From Candidatus Krumholzibacteriota bacterium (lineage in GTDB: Bacteria; Krumholzibacteriota; Krumholzibacteriia; JAJRXK01), in the NCBI GenBank assembly GCA_963727455.1, contig CAVSGG010000006.1, forward strand, positions 32,001-96,000: a stretch of DNA of 64,000 nucleotides. The letters run 5' to 3'. Shown here one piece after another: positions 44,274-55,326 of this stretch; the stretch's first letter is position 1, and each line of letters opens with the position of its first letter. A program made the translations under genes and the position numbers. Under the pieces are notes generated by a model. It saw nothing but the letters and a program-made list of their open reading frames with translations. It was not told where the DNA came from and ran no database searches.

Positions 44274-44341
44274 GCGGACGCTGCGACCGCTGGTATACAT
44301 CTTGCCCTTTGCGCAGTGGGGAATGGCGCAAAGGATTGATC

Positions 44342-44995
44342 ATGAAGACTCGCTTGGGAAGCATGAGCAGCGCTTTGGCTCTGTCGGTCCTTCTGGTGGT
44401 TGCGATGGTCCCGCAGTCCACACGGGCCGGCCTCGACATTTCTTTCGGTGCCGCGGTCCACACCGGGGACGATACGGACGTCTATCTCGCGGTTTCCACC
44501 CGCTACTTCGATCGCGACCGCGCGGATGTCGATCGCTGGAATCGGGAATGCCGAAATCCCGACGATTTGGCGGTGGCGCTTTTCATCGCCAGCCATTGTG
44601 GCAAGGGGCCCGATGCCATCTTCGCGATGCACAAGGGCGGTCTGAGCTGGTGGGAGGTGAGCATGCGCCTGGGAGTACAGCCCGACGTATGGTTCGTTCC
44701 AGTGCAGCGCGATCCGGGACCGCCCTACGGTAAGGCCTACGGTTACCACAAAAAGCACGGTCACAATGCGGCCAAGATGCATCTGAGTGATGCAGACCTG
44801 CGCAATCTGGTCGCGGTGCGCATGCTCCACGATTACTACGGTGTGAGCGCCGAAGTCGCGATGGACTGGCGTTCATCCGGACGCAGCTTGCGCGAGATCG
44901 CAGCAAACGAGTACCGCGCGCGTCATGGCAAGAGCCAGCATGCCAACGGCAAATCGCCGAGTCACGGACACGGCAAAGCCAAGCACAGGCGGTAG
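44342..44995 (+). CDS. Secreted hypothetical protein with H/K-rich tail
   Basis: Signal peptide ending STRA; GPPYGKAYGY motif; C-terminal HGHGKAKH. Confidence 0.7.
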   Translation: MKTRLGSMSSALALSVLLVVAMVPQSTRAGLDISFGAAVHTGDDTDVYLAVSTRYFDRDRADVDRWNRECRNPDDLAVALFIASHCGKGPDAIFAMHKGGLSWWEVSMRLGVQPDVWFVPVQRDPGPPYGKAYGYHKKHGHNAAKMHLSDADLRNLVAVRMLHDYYGVSAEVAMDWRSSGRSLREIAANEYRARHGKSQHANGKSPSHGHGKAKHRR

Positions 44996-45799: not shown

Positions 45800-46423
45800 A
45801 TGAAAATCGGAATTATCGGAGCGGGCCATATCGGTGGAACCCTCGCCAGTCTTTTGACTAAAGCCGGACACGAAGTGATCCTCGCGAACTCGAGGGGCCC
45901 GGAGACGCTGCGCGAGCAAGTCGAGAAACTGGGACCGAAAGCCAGCGCCGCTACAGCCTCCGAAGCCGCCACGCGGGGAGAGATCGTCATCGAGGCCGTT
46001 CCCTTCGGTAAACTCAGCGAGTTGCCGCGCGAGGAGCTCAAGGGCAAGGTGCTGCTGACGGCCTCCAACTACTATCCTTCACGCGACGGCGCCATCGACC
46101 TTCAGGGACTCACCCAGAGCGAGTACTTGCACCGGCTCCTTCCCGAGACGCACCTGGCCAAGGTCTTCAACACCATCTTCTGGGAGCATCTGCGCGACCA
46201 GGGCGATCCGAGCAAGCCGCTCGAAGAGAGGCGCGTGCTTCCTTTTGTCGCCTCGGACGAGCAGGCCAAGAAGGTGGCCCAGGGGCTCATCGAGGAGCTG
46301 GGCTTCGGCCCCCTGTATTTGGGCAAGCTCTCCATGGCGCGTGGATTGAGTGAGACCGAGGACCGCCTCTACAACAAGCAGCTGACGCTGGCGCAGGCGA
46401 GAGGGATGGTGGAGACGAAGTAG
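45800..46423 (+). CDS. NADPH-dependent F420-reductase-like dinucleotide-binding oxidoreductase
   Basis: MKIGIIGAGHIGGTLA, ANSRGPETL, SNYYPSRDG, KVFNTI. Confidence 0.9.
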   Translation: MKIGIIGAGHIGGTLASLLTKAGHEVILANSRGPETLREQVEKLGPKASAATASEAATRGEIVIEAVPFGKLSELPREELKGKVLLTASNYYPSRDGAIDLQGLTQSEYLHRLLPETHLAKVFNTIFWEHLRDQGDPSKPLEERRVLPFVASDEQAKKVAQGLIEELGFGPLYLGKLSMARGLSETEDRLYNKQLTLAQARGMVETK

Positions 46424-46427
46424 CTTT

Positions 46428-46511
46428 TCTACCCGGGTATACAAGTCAAGTTTTTGTCGTTTATAGCCGGCTATAAAAGTCCAGATGCTGTCGAGTCTAC
46501 CCGGGTATACA
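46428..46511. repeat. Three palindromes at exact 34-bp spacing
   Basis: TCTACCCGGGTATACA at 46428 and 46496; TTTATAGCCGGCTATAAA at 46460. Confidence 0.8.
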
Positions 46512-46547
46512 GATCAAAATTGCGCAGCCAGTCTATCCGCGCGCGGC

Positions 46548-48983
46548 CTAGCCCTTGGCTTCCTTGTCGAGCGCGATCCCCAGGCGTTGCATCTTCTCGT
46601 AGAGCGTGTTGCGTCCGATTCCCAGATATCGAGCGGCTTCAGAACGCGAGTTCTTGCACTTGCGCAAGGCGTAAAGAATGATCCGGCGCTCCTCGACTTC
46701 CAAATGCTGTTGGAGGGAGAGAACGGGAGGCGGTTTCTTGCCGCGCGACTCTCGTAGAGAGTGGGGGAGGTGCTTCACGCGCACGCAGCCTCGCTCCAGA
46801 GCGCGAGTCGCCCCTGCACGGACGGCAGACTGCAGCTCCCGCACGTTGCCGGGCCACGGGTAGCGCTCGAAAAGTCTCCGCGCCTGCTTATCCATCCAAA
46901 ATTCGATGCCATACTCCTGGGATTGCTCCTCGAGGAAGAGATCGGTGAGTGGTGCGATATCCTCGGTACGCTCGCGCAGCGGCGGAACCCTTACTTCAAA
47001 AGCATTGATGCGGTACCAGAGATCTTCTCTGAAGGTTCTCTCCTCAACTTGGCGCTTGAGGTCACAATTCGTGGCGGCCAAAACACGGATATCGGCCGTA
47101 TACTCCACAACATCCCCGACCCGACGATAAGTGCCTTCCTGCAGTAATCGAAGCAACTTCGCCTGCATCGGCATCGGAAGCTCTCCGATCTCATCCAAGA
47201 AGAGTGTTCCTCTGGTGGCGGCAGCGACGACACCAGCCGCATCGCGGTCAGCACCCGTGAATGCGCCCTTCTTGTGTCCAAAGAGCTCGCGTTCGAAAAG
47301 AGACTCCGGGAGAGCAGCACAATTTACTGCCACGAAGGGTCCATCCGAGAAGGTGCTATGTTCGTGGATGTAGCGAGCAACAACCTCCTTCCCAACTCCG
47401 GTTGCTCCCATGATCACAGCAGGGGAAGCTGAGCGAGCGATGAGTTCACAGTCAGCAAGGACCGCCTTCATGCTAGGGGATACTGCGATGAGCGTGCCTT
47501 CCTTACGCACTGTTTGCTTCTTCTCCTCCGTGCATTGGGAGGCTTGTGCGCGGAGGCGGGCAAGATCCCGGGCCTCACGCGCGTCGTGTGCCAAAGTCGT
47601 AAGCTGGAGACGGGAAAAAATGGCGAGTGCTTCTTCGGCCGCATCAGCTGCCTGATCCGGCTCCAGGATCGCCGCGAGTTGGACGAGTGTCTTACCGAGT
47701 TCCAGGGGATTGTTGCGACGTCGCAACTCCGAAGCGGCTTCGTCGAGAAGTGGAATTGCCTCATCGGGGCGCGCAAGCTGCGCCAGGGCGGTAGCTTTAA
47801 CGCGAAGAATCTGGCCATACTCGCGAGGGTTTCCGCATGTGTGGATTACTTCGAGAGCATCGTTGGCAAGGTCCAAGGCGATTCGGGGGTTGTGCATGGC
47901 AAGATGAACTTCAGCCTCTTGCCAATAGACTTCGGCGAGTTCATAAGTTGTTGTTCCGGACGCCGCGAGGCACTTCTTGGCCTCCTCGAAAGATGCTAGG
48001 GCCGCCATGTAATCGAGTCGCTGGGCTTGTGCAATACCTTGGTACTCGTGCCACATGGCGGCGGCCGAGGCGTCCATATGCGAAAGATTATCTCGAACCT
48101 CATCAAGTCTACTGGAGGCAGACGTAACATTTCCAAGCAGCAGCTCAAGCCTGGTAAGTGCCACGAGTGTTTTCAACTTGAAGGGAGTCACTCTGCTCTC
48201 AAATTCGGTATGGAGCTCCAGCGCATGAATCAAGAGGGTTTGAGCCCTTGCGAACTTGGCCTGGTGGTAGCAGAAGATGCCAATCTGACGAAGCGCGGCC
48301 GTTGCAGTTCTGTAATTTCCAAGACGTGCCGCAAGTCTCAAAGAGGCGGTAGATAGTTGTTCAGCGTATCCCGCATTCCCAAGCCCCCATTGAATCTCGG
48401 CACGAGCCTGGAGCGCGTGAGCGAGTAGCAGCTGTTCTGACTGGAGGCGGAAGAGACCACAGGCAAGATCGATTTGTTCCTCGGCTTGCATTAAGTCACC
48501 AGAGCGGGAAAACGACCTGTAGCCCTCAAGATACATGATTTCTGCCAAAACAAGCTGGGAGTCCTCTGGATTACAGATTCGTCGAGCAGAACTTACCGCA
48601 GCACGTGACTTACGGTCGTTGCCACTCATTAGTTCGGACCACGCTACCTTGATTCGGATGCGCGCTTGAGCTTCTACACTCAAGCTCCTAGCTGGTCCCG
48701 AGAGGAACTCGGCTAGCTTTTCCCGATTCCCGGTGACATGAAGCGAAAGGGCGTAGTGTACCCCTATCTCGTTGCGGAGATCAGGCTCAAGAGAATCCAA
48801 GTCAAGAAGTGCCTTCTCCGCATAAACTATTGCAGTATCGAAACGCCCGGCCGCCGTGAGTGGTACTACGAGGGAGGCACTCTCTCGCGCCGAGATTGGG
48901 TGTCTGTGGTCTTCGAGTCCAGGAGTAAGCGCCAGTGAGGTCGCTTTCAGGCGTTGAATAGTGCGCTTGAGGTCGGCGTTCAT
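46548..48983 (-). CDS. sigma54-dependent enhancer-binding protein: N-terminal TPR array, AAA+ domain, Fis HTH
   Basis: GATGVGKE, VNCAAL, ELFGHKKGAFTGA, LFLDEIGE, FREDLWYR, WPGNVREL, AARYLGIGRNTLYEK; ~480-aa helical-repeat N-terminus with no REC, GAF or PAS motif visible. Confidence 0.92.
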   Translation of the reverse strand: MNADLKRTIQRLKATSLALTPGLEDHRHPISARESASLVVPLTAAGRFDTAIVYAEKALLDLDSLEPDLRNEIGVHYALSLHVTGNREKLAEFLSGPARSLSVEAQARIRIKVAWSELMSGNDRKSRAAVSSARRICNPEDSQLVLAEIMYLEGYRSFSRSGDLMQAEEQIDLACGLFRLQSEQLLLAHALQARAEIQWGLGNAGYAEQLSTASLRLAARLGNYRTATAALRQIGIFCYHQAKFARAQTLLIHALELHTEFESRVTPFKLKTLVALTRLELLLGNVTSASSRLDEVRDNLSHMDASAAAMWHEYQGIAQAQRLDYMAALASFEEAKKCLAASGTTTYELAEVYWQEAEVHLAMHNPRIALDLANDALEVIHTCGNPREYGQILRVKATALAQLARPDEAIPLLDEAASELRRRNNPLELGKTLVQLAAILEPDQAADAAEEALAIFSRLQLTTLAHDAREARDLARLRAQASQCTEEKKQTVRKEGTLIAVSPSMKAVLADCELIARSASPAVIMGATGVGKEVVARYIHEHSTFSDGPFVAVNCAALPESLFERELFGHKKGAFTGADRDAAGVVAAATRGTLFLDEIGELPMPMQAKLLRLLQEGTYRRVGDVVEYTADIRVLAATNCDLKRQVEERTFREDLWYRINAFEVRVPPLRERTEDIAPLTDLFLEEQSQEYGIEFWMDKQARRLFERYPWPGNVRELQSAVRAGATRALERGCVRVKHLPHSLRESRGKKPPPVLSLQQHLEVEERRIILYALRKCKNSRSEAARYLGIGRNTLYEKMQRLGIALDKEAKG

Positions 48984-49379
48984 CTAGCGCTCCATTCCGT
49001 GCATGTGAACGAATCCGGAGAACTCGCGTAGGAGATGATGCAACCACCGCGAACCAAAGCGTGTAAATTTTGCGAAAGCAAAATCACCAGAGTCGGCGGA
49101 GATGCTGCGATCACGAGTGTTAGTACTTGGCAGGATCGTTGGAGCCAGTGTGTCTGTTCGTCCGATGAGTAGCTCACCACCACCCGGATCCCCCCCACTC
49201 GAGCTGCCCGAACTTGCCTCGATGTCTCCTTGGAAGGTGCCGAGCCTGGATATGACCTTGGCGTGGCTCGCGGACGGAACCGTACAGAGAGCAAAACTGC
49301 AAAGGAGAAGAAAACTCAGGATTGTGCAAAACCAGTAGCTGCGAAAAGTCGTCTTCACCGTTGAACGGGAAGAATTCAT
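48984..49379 (-). CDS. Small secreted low-complexity protein (131 aa), candidate pro-peptide
   Basis: AGGAGG RBS; signal peptide ending ASHA; SSGSSSGGDPGGG segment; its TAG directly abuts the activator ATG. Confidence 0.65.
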   Translation of the reverse strand: MNSSRSTVKTTFRSYWFCTILSFLLLCSFALCTVPSASHAKVISRLGTFQGDIEASSGSSSGGDPGGGELLIGRTDTLAPTILPSTNTRDRSISADSGDFAFAKFTRFGSRWLHHLLREFSGFVHMHGMER

Positions 49380-49659
49380 CGGTGCCTCCTGGACCTCAAA
49401 TCGATACAACCCTGAGCACGGCAACCGACGTCCGTCGCGTGCTAACTGGTCGTAGTGGCCAGAGCATGGCCTTTTTGGGAGGGGTCTCGGCTGGGAGCGA
49501 GCCATGACCGAGAGTGTCAACCACGATTAGACACTATGCGGCAAGTCGATGTCAAGGGGACCGGGAAATCCAGACAAATACCTCAACTCGCACACAGAAA
49601 AAACAGAGTGAAAGATTCAATTCTCAAGTTGAAGCAGTGAGAACTCAACTCCTTGAGTA

Positions 49660-50793
49660 TTACTCCAACCCCACCACATGAAAAGTCGACAGCTGACTCC
49701 CCGGAAGACTCACATAGGACTGAGCGGCGTACCAGAACTTGGCTCCATCGAAAGCGAGGCCCTCGGGAAACGGCCCGTTGACTTCGTCAGGCAGGTGATA
49801 CACGGCCACCGTCTTCCCCGTGTGGTCGATCTGGTAGAGGTTACTCAGGAACCAACCCACGCTCCAAAAATAGCCGTTGGCGTATTCGAGGTGGCTGAGA
49901 TCGCAAACCGAAATGGGAACGGTTTCCACCACGCTGCCCGAAGCATCCAGACGATACAGCGCCTCGCTGCCCGGCCCGAGGTTCCACACCGAACTGCCGT
50001 CGTAGGTCAGACCCGAGGAGCGCATGGGAATCCCAACTCTTTGCGTGATCGTTCCATCAGGGGTGAAGCGGATGAGGTCGGCCTCGTTGCGCGTTCCCGT
50101 TCCGTCGGTAATGGAGGTAGGCAGCGTGCCCCACAACTCGCTGCTACTTGCGGCGAGATCATGGCTCGTCCAGAAGGCATCGTTTTCCAGCAGCACCAAG
50201 ACGGTGTCATCGAACGCGTCCGCGGTTAGGGGCATCGTGAAATAGCCATATCCCAAAGTGCTGATCCACAGATGATCACCCATGACCGCCAGCCCCTTGA
50301 TGTCGTTGGGAACTTCTCGATTGGAATCGAGGGCGAGTTCACCGAGCTGTTGCTTCTCCGCCTGCATCGACGCTTCGAGTCCAGCGGTTGGCAGACTGAA
50401 GGTGCCGTTGAATCTCGTCGAGGCACCGGACACCTCTCCCGCCAATGCAAATGTGAACAGGTAGGGATGGGAATCGTAATCGAGCGCCAGGTGCAAGCTG
50501 TCACCATCGCTCGTGCCACTGAGATCGAAGAAGTGCCAGCTATCATTCCCTCCTCGATCGCGCAGTACGATTTGACCCTTCACCACGCTTCCGGTGCGCG
50601 TGAGGTCCAGCAGCAGCCCTCCGTTCTGCGTGTGATCGAGGCTTTCGTAAGTGCCCTGCCAGAACTCGGCCGTGGTTGGGTAGCTGAAGTTCTCGGGTCC
50701 GGTGCCGTCGTCGTCGCACCCGAACTGTAGCAGGCTGAAAATGAGAATCAGTGGTAGGTAGGTGAGACTAAAATTACGGCGGGCGAAAAGCAT
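49660..50793 (-). CDS. Lipoprotein with C-terminal beta-propeller
   Basis: Lipobox LQFGC-DDDGTGP; GLTYDG..W and GLAFDG.KFW repeats. Confidence 0.75.
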   Translation of the reverse strand: MLFARRNFSLTYLPLILIFSLLQFGCDDDGTGPENFSYPTTAEFWQGTYESLDHTQNGGLLLDLTRTGSVVKGQIVLRDRGGNDSWHFFDLSGTSDGDSLHLALDYDSHPYLFTFALAGEVSGASTRFNGTFSLPTAGLEASMQAEKQQLGELALDSNREVPNDIKGLAVMGDHLWISTLGYGYFTMPLTADAFDDTVLVLLENDAFWTSHDLAASSSELWGTLPTSITDGTGTRNEADLIRFTPDGTITQRVGIPMRSSGLTYDGSSVWNLGPGSEALYRLDASGSVVETVPISVCDLSHLEYANGYFWSVGWFLSNLYQIDHTGKTVAVYHLPDEVNGPFPEGLAFDGAKFWYAAQSYVSLPGSQLSTFHVVGLE

Positions 50794-50988
50794 GGCGCGT
50801 CCTTCTTGTTGAGGAAGCGTCGACCAGGGACTCGATTCTAGCGAAAATCCCGCGCGGCAGGCAAGCCGACAGTTCAAAGCCAGCTTATGGCCCAGGAATC
50901 GGCCAATCCTTGCTCGAAGACCAGCAGAACCCCTATCATTGCGTACACACGCGGCAGCCGTCCTTCATCCTAGATTTTGGGAGAGCCC

Positions 50989-53700: not shown

Positions 53701-55326
53701 TCAGTGCTGGCTGATGAGTTGGGGGACGACGCCGCCCATGACCTCGTCGAAGCGCGGGCCGCGCAACAGTTCGATTTGCTTTTCGAGCAGCTGCTCCATG
53801 CTCGCGAAATCGAGTCCAATCTTCCTCCACACGAAATCGTCGTGATCTTCGACCGAGAGACCGTGGCCCGGTTGGATCTCGCAGCCGTGGTAAAGATGGG
53901 CGAAGTAGGCGCGTTCGTTTTCCTGACCCCCGCCGTACACGAGCACGTTCAAGAGCCCGTTGGTGGGAGACCAGTCGCGATCCTGGATGGGGCGCACCGC
54001 GAGGCGCGGATCCTCGAAGTACTTCTCCAGGGGACGCACCGCAGGGAGAAGCACCCGGAACAGGGCACCTTCTCCCTTTTTATTCCACATGCAGGTTGAG
54101 GCTGCTCCGTCCTCCATCTCGGGCTCGAGCACGGTGAGGTCGGGCCGGTTGAGCGCGTTGTCCGTGCCTGCGCAGAGAATTTCGGGCTTTCCATCCTCGG
54201 AGAGGTCGGCGAGGTAAGGTTGGTACATGTGCCCCGGATGTGTGTAGTGGGACAGTGGTGCTCCACTCTCACGATCGACGATCAAAAGGAAGCATGGACT
54301 GTAAAACTGTTGGTAGCAGATCGCGAGTCGCGAACCCAAAGTGAGTTTCCCCGTGCGCCAGGCCACCGAACTCACTCCCCACCCCTGATCGTAGACCGTG
54401 GTATCGAGCGTACTGTGCGTGAAGATCTCCGCGCGCGGGGGGCGCCACTTTAGCTTCCACACGAAGGAATCGGCCTCAGCGTCCCAGAGCCAGACTCTTC
54501 CTCCTTGGCTGCCACCGCGCTGGCTGGTCAAGAGCAGCCGAGGATCATCATTTGAAGGTCCCGGGAGCAACATCAGACAACCCAGCGGCGCGCCCAAGCT
54601 CGGCAGGCGAAGCGCCGGCACGAGTTGTTTCAGTGGAGGGTTCCCTTCCTCGGATTTTTGGTCCAGGCGCAAGGGGACGCCGATATAGCGCGCGTCGATG
54701 CGGCGTAGCTGAGTATTCAGGTCCATGGATGCGGAAGCTAACTGCGAAGCCTGCCGGAGTTGCTTCAGTTGAGGTAAACCCCAAATCGCGAGGGCGAGGA
54801 GCATCACGATGCCACCGGCGAAGGCTGCGCGCTTCAGCTGTTGTTTGCGCCGGTGGAAGGGAAGATCGAGCTGGGGAAGCTCGGGGAGAGTTTCGCTCTG
54901 CGCCCAGCGGAGGATGAGTCGATAGGCCTCGTGCTGGCGGTTCTTCAACGTGCGCTCGGAAAGACGAACCAGGCCCGTTTCTTTGCGCTGCGCGGAGATG
55001 ACGTCCCAGGTATCCCCGTCGAGCACGTGCCGTTTCAAGAGGGTGATGGGCGAGACATCGTCCATCATGGCGGGATGTCGTGACTCGAGTTCCTCGACTG
55101 CGATCTCGAGGGCGGTGCGGCAGATCTGCCGCACGAATTCGGGCTTGGCGGGATCGAGCCGATCCAGCCCGAGATTGCGAAAGCGCGGATAGACGCCCCA
55201 GTCGAACTCCAGCACGATCTCATAACTGCGCCGATTGAAGCGGCGCACGAGTTCGCACATCTGGCTCATTGCGGCCTGCGGCTGCAATGGCCGGACGTCG
55301 TTCCCGTCTCCCGAGGAACGGGGCAT
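53701..55326 (-). CDS. Membrane-anchored regulator: sigma4-like HTH, TM helix, extracytoplasmic propeller/FG-GAP-like domain
   Basis: LLKRHVLDGDTWDVIS...LSERTLKNRQHEAY; TM AAFAGGIVMLLALAIWGL; HPGH...DLSEDGKPEILCAG. Confidence 0.65.
   Translation of the reverse strand: MPRSSGDGNDVRPLQPQAAMSQMCELVRRFNRRSYEIVLEFDWGVYPRFRNLGLDRLDPAKPEFVRQICRTALEIAVEELESRHPAMMDDVSPITLLKRHVLDGDTWDVISAQRKETGLVRLSERTLKNRQHEAYRLILRWAQSETLPELPQLDLPFHRRKQQLKRAAFAGGIVMLLALAIWGLPQLKQLRQASQLASASMDLNTQLRRIDARYIGVPLRLDQKSEEGNPPLKQLVPALRLPSLGAPLGCLMLLPGPSNDDPRLLLTSQRGGSQGGRVWLWDAEADSFVWKLKWRPPRAEIFTHSTLDTTVYDQGWGVSSVAWRTGKLTLGSRLAICYQQFYSPCFLLIVDRESGAPLSHYTHPGHMYQPYLADLSEDGKPEILCAGTDNALNRPDLTVLEPEMEDGAASTCMWNKKGEGALFRVLLPAVRPLEKYFEDPRLAVRPIQDRDWSPTNGLLNVLVYGGGQENERAYFAHLYHGCEIQPGHGLSVEDHDDFVWRKIGLDFASMEQLLEKQIELLRGPRFDEVMGGVVPQLISQH

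Follow-up and report, generated by a model that had tools for sequence, protein, structure and literature searches.

A conserved two-gene cassette of a small signal-peptide protein and a TPR-sensor sigma-54 activator in Krumholzibacteriota: a candidate signal-and-receptor pair

The small gene and the activator gene

We analyzed a 64,000-nucleotide stretch of a metagenome-assembled Candidatus Krumholzibacteriota genome (the window, G000:C6:32001-96000; coordinates without a contig name are positions in it), in which two adjoining genes on the minus strand form a candidate signaling cassette. The genome is 88.85% complete with 6.68% contamination. The upstream gene (48984..49379) encodes a protein of 131 amino acids (aa), a putative pro-signal that we take for an exported, mostly disordered partner of the downstream product, an 811-aa sigma-54 activator (bacterial enhancer-binding protein, bEBP; 46548..48983) with a tetratricopeptide repeat (TPR) sensor. 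The first assignment draws on the open reading frame (ORF), its orthologues, a family alignment, the ratio of nonsynonymous to synonymous substitution rates (dN/dS) and an AlphaFold2 (AF2) model, the second on Pfam and alignment. An earlier note on this DNA had proposed a peptide-signaling cassette here, and the parts it listed for the small gene are all present: an AGGAGG ribosome-binding site, a Sec-type signal, a disordered middle, a C-terminal helix and a TAG-ATG junction with the activator gene.

The small ORF starts with the ATG at 49377-49379, 5 nt downstream of the Shine-Dalgarno sequence AGGAGG (49385..49390, on the minus strand like all cassette features below), which is kept in two related genomes (G003 and G001), and ends with the TAG at 48984-48986, abutting the activator ATG. 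The predicted signal peptide (residues 1-40, 49260..49379) has a basic n-region, a hydrophobic core and an SHA-K cleavage site; the call follows a rule of thumb (n-region, hydrophobic core, small-x-Ala site) and draws on sequence, alignment and AF2. Among 13 aligned small proteins, the residue just before the presumed cut, Ala40 (position -1), hardly varies. An acidic motif, GDPGGG, occupies residues 63-68 (49176..49193), and Gly63, Pro65, Gly67 and Gly68 (GxPxGG) are invariant in alignments of 7 and then 13 sequences, in line with the GDP-containing conserved core that had been suggested. Small proteins of the other clades have related motifs of the G-[D/E]-P type. A PEP-CTERM-like sorting signal and a double-glycine leader were each considered for this protein and dropped, as the motif position does not fit. 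The AF2 model, computed from the 13-sequence alignment, has a helix at residues 10-33 and a C-terminal helix at residues 97-130 with a mean predicted local distance difference test score (pLDDT) of 57, and residues 39-106, including GDPGGG, stay below 50. The amphipathic part of the C-terminal helix (approximately residues 108-131, 48987..49058) belongs to the allele-variable half of the protein, as judged from AF2, dN/dS and the mosaic allele described below. Pfam and NCBIfam scans of the small protein returned no match.

Compared with the orthologue in G003, dN/dS is 0.35 for the whole small ORF and lower both around the motif (0.23) and in the C-terminal helix (0.14). With an overall ratio of 0.35, the small ORF is, by this measure of its sequence, a real gene under purifying selection, and the 13-sequence alignment likewise bears out its conservation, which the earlier note had made a test of its proposal. 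The synonymous rate (dS) against G003 is much lower in the part coding for the signal peptide (49260-49379; 0.21) than elsewhere in the gene (0.86-1.6), which hints at either recent exchange or constraint at the nucleotide level.

The activator had been described as a TPR-like array followed by an intact GAFTGA-containing AAA+ domain and a Fis-type helix-turn-helix (HTH), and Pfam, AF2 and alignment agree. The AAA+ sigma-54 interaction domain spans residues 499-664 (46992..47489; Pfam Sigma54_activat PF00158, E 7e-63), AAA_lid_14 is also matched, and the HTH (Pfam HTH_8) lies at residues 761-800 (46584..46703). GAFTGA (47250-47267), Walker A (G..GVGK) and Walker B (DE) are invariant columns among seven orthologues. 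Judged by these domains and motifs, the 811-aa protein is a bona fide sigma-54 activator, and an rpoN gene is found on contig C8 of the same genome (Sigma54_DBD, 217.8 bits). NCBIfam gave no named equivalog at cut-off for the activator, with PspF, NifA, NorR and others far below. No transmembrane-like segment was seen in any of 44 cassette activators (highest 19-aa hydropathy 0.87-1.53). A Pfam scan located no kinase domain among the nine neighboring products, in agreement with the statement that no kinase is adjacent.

The TPR nature of the N-terminus is upheld by a TPR_12 match at residues 229-298 (40.8 bits versus a Pfam cut-off of 30.1), by the AF2 model of residues 1-490 (pLDDT 92.6, 25 helices) and by a Foldseek comparison of this model with the Protein Data Bank (PDB), which returned 301 matches at E<=0.001; the matches are TPR superhelices. 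Tom71, LGN/Pins and APC subunits lead these matches; others include APPBP2 and MalT domain III, and some are chaperone-like binders of peptide tails. A search of the ESM Atlas returned generic TPR clusters only, all <0.9. A homologue search with the TPR region found 5 proteins, and a locus search with a 3-sequence alignment found only three known relatives. We divide the array into a putative specificity part (residues 1-310, 48054..48983), which is allele-variable (44% identity between the two alleles compared below) and folds as helical repeats in the AF2 model, and a conserved part (residues 311-485, 47529..48053), defined by a 23-sequence class-level alignment and by the same allele comparison. 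The invariant TPR residues in the class-level alignment (E313, E351, E388, R394, E428 and A452) all six fall within residues 311-485.

Conservation, allelic mosaic and surroundings of the pair

The family to which the genome belongs (f1) comprises the whole order and is represented by 10 genomes. We located an orthologous cassette in 8 of the 9 other members (G001, G003, G004, G005, G006, G007, G008 on a partial contig, and G009) and found none in G002, which is 97% complete; a weak profile hit in G002 is spurious, as it lies opposite a 401-aa ORF and away from any TPR activator. In G001 (locus L044, G001:C5:327023-329854) both cassette genes align in shifting frames, though the long frame stays open, and these breaks are likely indel errors of the 9-contig assembly rather than decay. 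The G006 locus (L045:8167-8952) carries tandem small ORFs of 104 and 118 aa, each with a signal peptide and the motif SGDPDGG, in front of a single TPR activator; from their sequences, they are a duplicated signal gene. Synteny beyond the two cassette genes is restricted to the genus and is gone in G004, G005, G006 and G009.

A profile of the small-protein subfamily retrieved 13 proteins at E<=0.001 among 1.84 billion representatives, of which the 11 inspected share the same layout and the remaining two (1139 and 379 aa) are probably unrelated. Over 208 genomes of the class, this profile matched family f1 only, plus one weak match. At the level of the class we compared 47 rows of TPR-activator loci (8 from f1, 18 hand-picked for long N-terminal matches and 21 best by TPR profile) from seven of the nine class families searched, f5 and f9 having been left out; relatives among them are not independent samples. 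Subtracting a duplicate (L104, identical to L074) and a locus with only 129 nt upstream (L077) leaves 45 assessable loci. A scripted test looked for a frame of <=260 aa on the same strand that ends next to the activator start and has a 12-aa hydropathy window of >=2.0, followed within 70 aa of that window by an acidic motif of the type G-[D/E/N]-P..., [D/E]PGED or GDD[D/W]. We find that 42 of the 45 loci pass, and the three that fail (L044, L047 and L055) have a small ORF by other evidence. The same test applied to the 1251 frames of >=450 aa in the own genome was positive for seven, two of which are TPR-activator cassettes; the contrast between 42/45 and 7/1251 is descriptive and not a formal test, because the motif definition was written after examples had been seen. 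No such small ORF is present at the other 12 motif-recognized bEBPs of this genome.

The activators of relatives measure 785-1063 aa, and the small proteins of 44 extracted pairs 73-143 aa. Their acidic motif averages 3.5 acidic and 0.6 basic residues per 15 aa, and the net charge of the tail is positive in 28 of the 44. Homologues of the activator, in f1 as in the class, carry the neighboring small signal-peptide ORF that the earlier note had asked to see beside them, and the pairing is a real, strongly conserved, lineage-wide two-gene module and not a product of chance.

A second cassette in the own genome (G000:C8:121080-124608) pairs a 117-aa signal-peptide protein, which has the motif NGDPDELTGG and a tail that is basic and amphipathic, with a TPR sigma-54 activator of 1039 aa encoded 52 nt further downstream. 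Directly upstream of this C8 cassette, on the same strand, is a gene for a response-regulator-type bEBP; the G006 cassette has a PAS-type bEBP upstream.

We computed a maximum-likelihood tree of 44 TPR domains (leaving out L044, L047, L055, L077, the duplicate L104 and the second small ORF of L045) and placed ten small-protein motif types on it. The motif types require 9 changes, the minimum possible, a number that 200 label shuffles never reached. Within each of G000, G022, G025 and G027, paralogous cassettes fall in different motif clades, where they group with cassettes of other families. The agreement of motif and tree shows that each small gene has been linked anciently and stably to an activator lineage of its own.

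A metagenome contig (L115) carries a mosaic allele of the pair. On either side of a divergent block of ∼1150 nt (L115:5195-6346) its DNA matches G003 at 97-100% identity, the exceptions being two 60-nt windows of the upstream propeller gene (80% and 87%), and identity within the block drops to ∼25-73% per 60-nt window. The left edge of the block is at the GDPxGG motif: small-protein residues 1-68 are 99% identical between L115 and G003, and the remainder is 26% identical. The right edge lies inside the TPR domain, with 44% identity over activator residues 1-310 and 99% over both TPR residues 311-485 and the AAA+ domain. The six class-invariant TPR residues all lie outside the part replaced in L115. 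A milder gradient separates G000 from G003 (small protein 71% then 40%, TPR 70% then 87%, AAA+ 92%), and dN/dS for the same pair of genomes falls from 0.35 in the small ORF to 0.14 in the TPR region and 0.04 in AAA+/HTH. Contigs of four DNA runs compared with 45800-50900 contain fragments of the sequence of the window itself and diverged relatives, with no usable allele information; in the contig of one relative, 49051-49297 is replaced by 242 unlike letters.

The small protein does co-vary with the TPR domain, as the earlier note had proposed, both on the tree and in the L115 mosaic; the co-varying region is the linker and C-terminal helix after GDP and not the GDP core that had been put forward. 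The L115 block resembles pherotype loci, in this one strain pair, and sequence comparison favors a direct, allele-specific recognition in which TPR repeats 1-310 would read the post-motif half of the small protein. Complex prediction with TPR residues 1-490 and the mature small protein (residues 41-131), run without controls, gave ipSAE interface scores of 0.00 and 0.01 and speaks neither for nor against binding.

Upstream of the small ORF we identified promoter-like boxes on the minus strand (49526..49555), TTGACA (49550-49555) and TCTAAT (49526-49531) separated by 18 nt, which imply a 5' leader of ∼140 nt. TTGACA and a TCTAAT-like box are kept in four aligned genomes; a consensus promoter scan did not call them. 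The fold of the leader is not significant (z = -1.04), and Rfam has no match in the window or the leader. Sigma-54 promoter-like sites number 54 in the window versus 58.6 expected, which is no enrichment, and the genome-wide list is too noisy to use. Upstream of the 44 cassettes their density is 0.36 hits/kb versus 0.22/kb in controls, which we do not count as enrichment. Near f1 cassettes, a good match upstream of the small ORF occurs in G004 and G007 only (L043:10856-10870 and L046:3998-4012; CGGCAC-N5-TTGC and GGGCAC-N5-TTGC, 190-310 nt upstream). General autoregulation through sigma-54 sites was rejected, the promoter-like matches not being general across cassettes.

Elsewhere in the window, a sigma-54 promoter-like site (TGGTATACATCTTGC, TGGTAT-N5-TTGC; 44291-44305, plus strand) stands just before an ORF for a secreted-looking 228-aa protein (44309-44995). 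This ORF is absent from the syntenic region in G003, and the site is not conserved there. Between 49660 and 53318 lie genes for a secreted, beta-propeller-like protein of 405 aa (weak DUF6923 match) and for two lipoprotein-like paralogues of 391 and 383 aa, which are ∼51-55% identical to each other; these three genes adjoin the cassette within the genus only, and none matches Pfam at cut-off. A 541-aa ORF (53701-55326, minus strand) with no Pfam match is conserved in G003 (85%) and G001 (∼74%).

A candidate pheromone system and its alternatives

We consider it likely that the small protein and the activator are a cognate, directly interacting pair. Our favored reading goes further, and we put it at somewhat under even odds (roughly 0.45): the cassette would be a pheromone system made of a cognate exported signal and a cytoplasmic receptor, which senses the signal after its export, maturation and re-entry. 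Both genes would be transcribed as one unit and form a self-contained cognate pair. The largely disordered small protein would be exported by Sec and cut by signal peptidase after Ala40, and proteolytic maturation outside would precede re-entry. The activator would be soluble and cytoplasmic, its TPR superhelix of ∼485 aa serving as its sole input module. The half of the small protein after GDPxGG, including the amphipathic C-terminal helix, would be recognized allele-specifically by TPR repeats 1-310, with pherotype-like alleles, and repeats 311-485 would relay the signal to the AAA+ domain, which would switch sigma-54-dependent transcription. The acidic motif, at the border between the conserved and variable halves, may be a processing, docking or recognition site. 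In this account, the export and cleavage of the small protein, its re-entry and its contact with the TPR domain are inferences, and so are the genes that the activator controls and the direction in which it does so.

The route through the outside is favored because the allele replacement seen in L115 makes sense for signals that pass between cells, and because the own genome encodes three family-5 peptide-binding proteins, which are not specific to peptide re-import here. More tentatively, and with somewhat less confidence than in the single cassette, we suggest that these pairs may make up a lineage-wide pheromone family of diderm bacteria, in which an exported pro-protein would be matured outside, its C-terminal part would re-enter and the TPR domain would drive the sigma-54 AAA+ module; the cassettes in one genome would be orthogonal, and allele swaps would open private channels.

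Several observations weigh against this pheromone system. The post-motif region of ∼65 aa is far above the size of known imported pheromones, and comparison of the neighborhoods revealed no dedicated protease, exporter or importer gene linked to the cassette. No sigma-54 promoter or target gene could be assigned in the window, genome-wide or cassette-upstream scans. The tree shows linkage and not contact, because adjacent genes are co-inherited whatever their function. The mosaic rests on one metagenome contig; several sources record the small protein that spans the junction, though on one contig, which makes a chimeric assembly unlikely. Finally, the type of C-terminal segment varies by clade, being a basic amphipathic helix in many, strand-like or acidic in f2 and nearly transmembrane-like in f6, and therefore one mechanism may not fit all clades.

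Among the alternatives, the one that survives best, which we regard as unlikely though not negligible, moves the contact to a point before export. Here the small protein, still in the cytoplasm or on the inner side of the membrane, would bind the TPR domain and hold the activator off (or on) until Sec export removes it, so that the cassette would report the state of secretion or of the envelope and not cell density. Such export-coupled logic is known from FlgM and from the TPR chaperones of type III secretion, and the earlier note had likewise allowed that the small protein may be a membrane-associated inhibitor. Allele-specific co-variation is just as compatible with a contact before export, the abutting stop and start codons point to synthesis in a 1:1 ratio, a partner region of ∼65 aa is more easily bound whole than re-imported, and the chaperone-like binders among the PDB matches of the TPR model point the same way. 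A classical cleavable signal peptide, however, normally means rapid export with little time in the cytoplasm, and a replacement of alleles as in pherotype loci is expected for signals between cells, whereas it brings no obvious gain to an internal sensor.

A second alternative, which we find improbable, does without contact. The small protein would act in the envelope or periplasm, for instance as an acidic peptide that binds metal or belongs to a matrix, and would be co-expressed with an activator whose TPR domain senses something else. The acidic G/P/D motif could indeed be a cation-binding loop, operon partners are co-inherited by default, and the interaction of the small protein with the TPR domain is a prediction. 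Co-expression leaves unexplained why the L115 block starts in the small gene and ends in the TPR domain between 99% identical flanks, and why only these two genes stay linked across seven families while other synteny is lost.

Very improbable, in our estimate, is a cis-acting leader. Secretion-monitoring arrest peptides such as SecM, VemP and MifM provide the precedent: the small ORF would stall the ribosome at its C-terminus and in this way regulate how the activator is translated. A signal peptide, a variable middle and constraint at the extreme C-terminus (dN/dS 0.14) would suit such a role, as would the end of the ORF at, or overlapping, the activator start codon. An arrest peptide would give the class-wide acidic motif no role, the C-terminal sequences differ wholly between clades, and a peptide acting in cis does not have to vary together with residues 1-310 of the protein encoded downstream. 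That the small ORF is no gene but an accidental reading frame of GC-rich DNA, for which the lack of a Pfam or NCBIfam match could be cited, is effectively refuted by its dN/dS of 0.35, the conserved Shine-Dalgarno sequence and ATG, the invariant motif and cleavage-site columns and its presence at 42 of 45 loci versus 7 of 1251 background frames.

Comparison with known systems

In open-access papers and preprints we found no description of a sigma-54 activator with TPR input and a secreted small protein, or of such signaling in Krumholzibacteriota, and from its sequence the cassette looks like an undescribed signal-and-receptor pair. Several known arrangements share traits with it. MalT domain III and SUPR-TPR sensors also fuse a helical-repeat sensor to an ATPase-driven transcription activator, and MalT domain III (PDB 1hz4) matches our TPR model with a target-normalized TM-score of 0.73. 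MalT itself senses maltotriose and works at sigma-70 promoters, as a STAND ATPase carrying a LuxR-type HTH; unlike the activator described here, it is not known to have a paired secreted protein. SecM, VemP and MifM resemble the small gene as signal-peptide ORFs with a constrained C-terminus immediately upstream of a regulated gene, whereas the cassette has an acidic motif in mid-protein and co-varies with the N-terminal domain encoded downstream.

Control of sigma-54 activators by a partner protein is known from PspA-PspF, HrpV-HrpS and NifL-NifA. In the cassette as in these pairs, the activity of an AAA+ sigma-54 activator lacking a receiver domain would be governed by a protein encoded separately. 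To our knowledge, none of the known partners, which are cytoplasmic or peripheral, has a cleavable signal peptide, and TPR input domains are absent from their activators. The PEP-CTERM system with PrsK, PrsR and PrsT likewise brings together a sigma-54 activator, a TPR protein and signal-peptide proteins with an acidic/Pro motif and a C-terminal hydrophobic helix, according to the account of these genes in PMC1569441. There, PrsT carries the TPRs in a lipoprotein of its own, PrsR is a response regulator accompanied by a kinase, and the PEP motif directly precedes the C-terminal transmembrane helix, whereas the cassette motif follows the signal peptide by ∼20 aa. TIGR02915 scores 289 bits on the activator versus a cut-off of 503.

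The mosaic allele has a parallel in two pherotype loci, comQXP(A) in Bacillus and agrBDC in Staphylococcus, where a sharp, hyper-divergent block likewise takes in the signal gene together with the sensing part of the receptor, and the output part, like the rest of the genome, is near-identical. In comP and agrC the block is known to reach only into the sensor part. The receptors of these loci are membrane histidine kinases that sense the peptide from outside, and the loci need a gene for a modifying or processing enzyme; the cassette receptor, in contrast, is predicted to be cytoplasmic, and no processing gene is linked to it. The passage of PMC4408185 on this locus describes comQXP as strikingly polymorphic beside a gyrA that is ∼99-100% identical.

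RRNPP systems (Rap, NprR, PlcR, PrgX and AimR of Firmicutes and phages), its nearest analogue in logic, share with the cassette a gene for a small pro-protein with a Sec signal, in the cassette a putative one, that adjoins a gene for a cytoplasmic TPR receptor controlling transcription, as well as the allelic co-diversification of signal and receptor. The signature set out in PMC10075063 has five points, among them a receptor of 250-500 aa and a propeptide of 10-100 aa by default (21-50 aa in validated examples). Set against that signature, the cassette has the TPRs and the adjacency and, by our rule of thumb, plausibly the Sec tag; its receptor is too long at 811 aa and its propeptide too long at 131 aa, and some of the 73-143-aa small proteins of other cassettes would pass. 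Detection tools tuned to receptors of 250-500 aa, as given there, would miss the cassette. Unlike in RRNPP systems, its receptor is fused to an AAA+ sigma-54 activator with a Fis HTH, the small gene stands upstream and is translationally coupled, and the host belongs to a diderm candidate phylum. The listed Foldseek hits include no match to an RRNPP receptor, by sequence or by fold. The RRNPP-like module of the earlier note therefore stands as an analogy of two-gene logic and not as membership: an 811-aa receptor, a 131-aa pro-protein and the lack of receptor homology among the listed fold matches argue that the cassette, which would work like RRNPP systems, is no member of them.

If the pheromone system proposed here is real, it would widen the known range of peptide and protein signaling and add a new type of input for sigma-54 activators. 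The cassettes, often present in several copies per genome and in our reading orthogonal, could also supply synthetic biology with compact orthogonal ligand/activator pairs, the natural allele swap marking the parts that specify each other. Secreted pro-peptides paired with cytoplasmic TPR receptors are regarded as a speciality of Firmicutes and of phages. Here this two-gene logic is seen in a diderm candidate phylum, and what would be new with respect to known pairs of a signal and a cytoplasmic TPR receptor is the sigma-54 AAA+ output, the host group and a much larger pro-protein.

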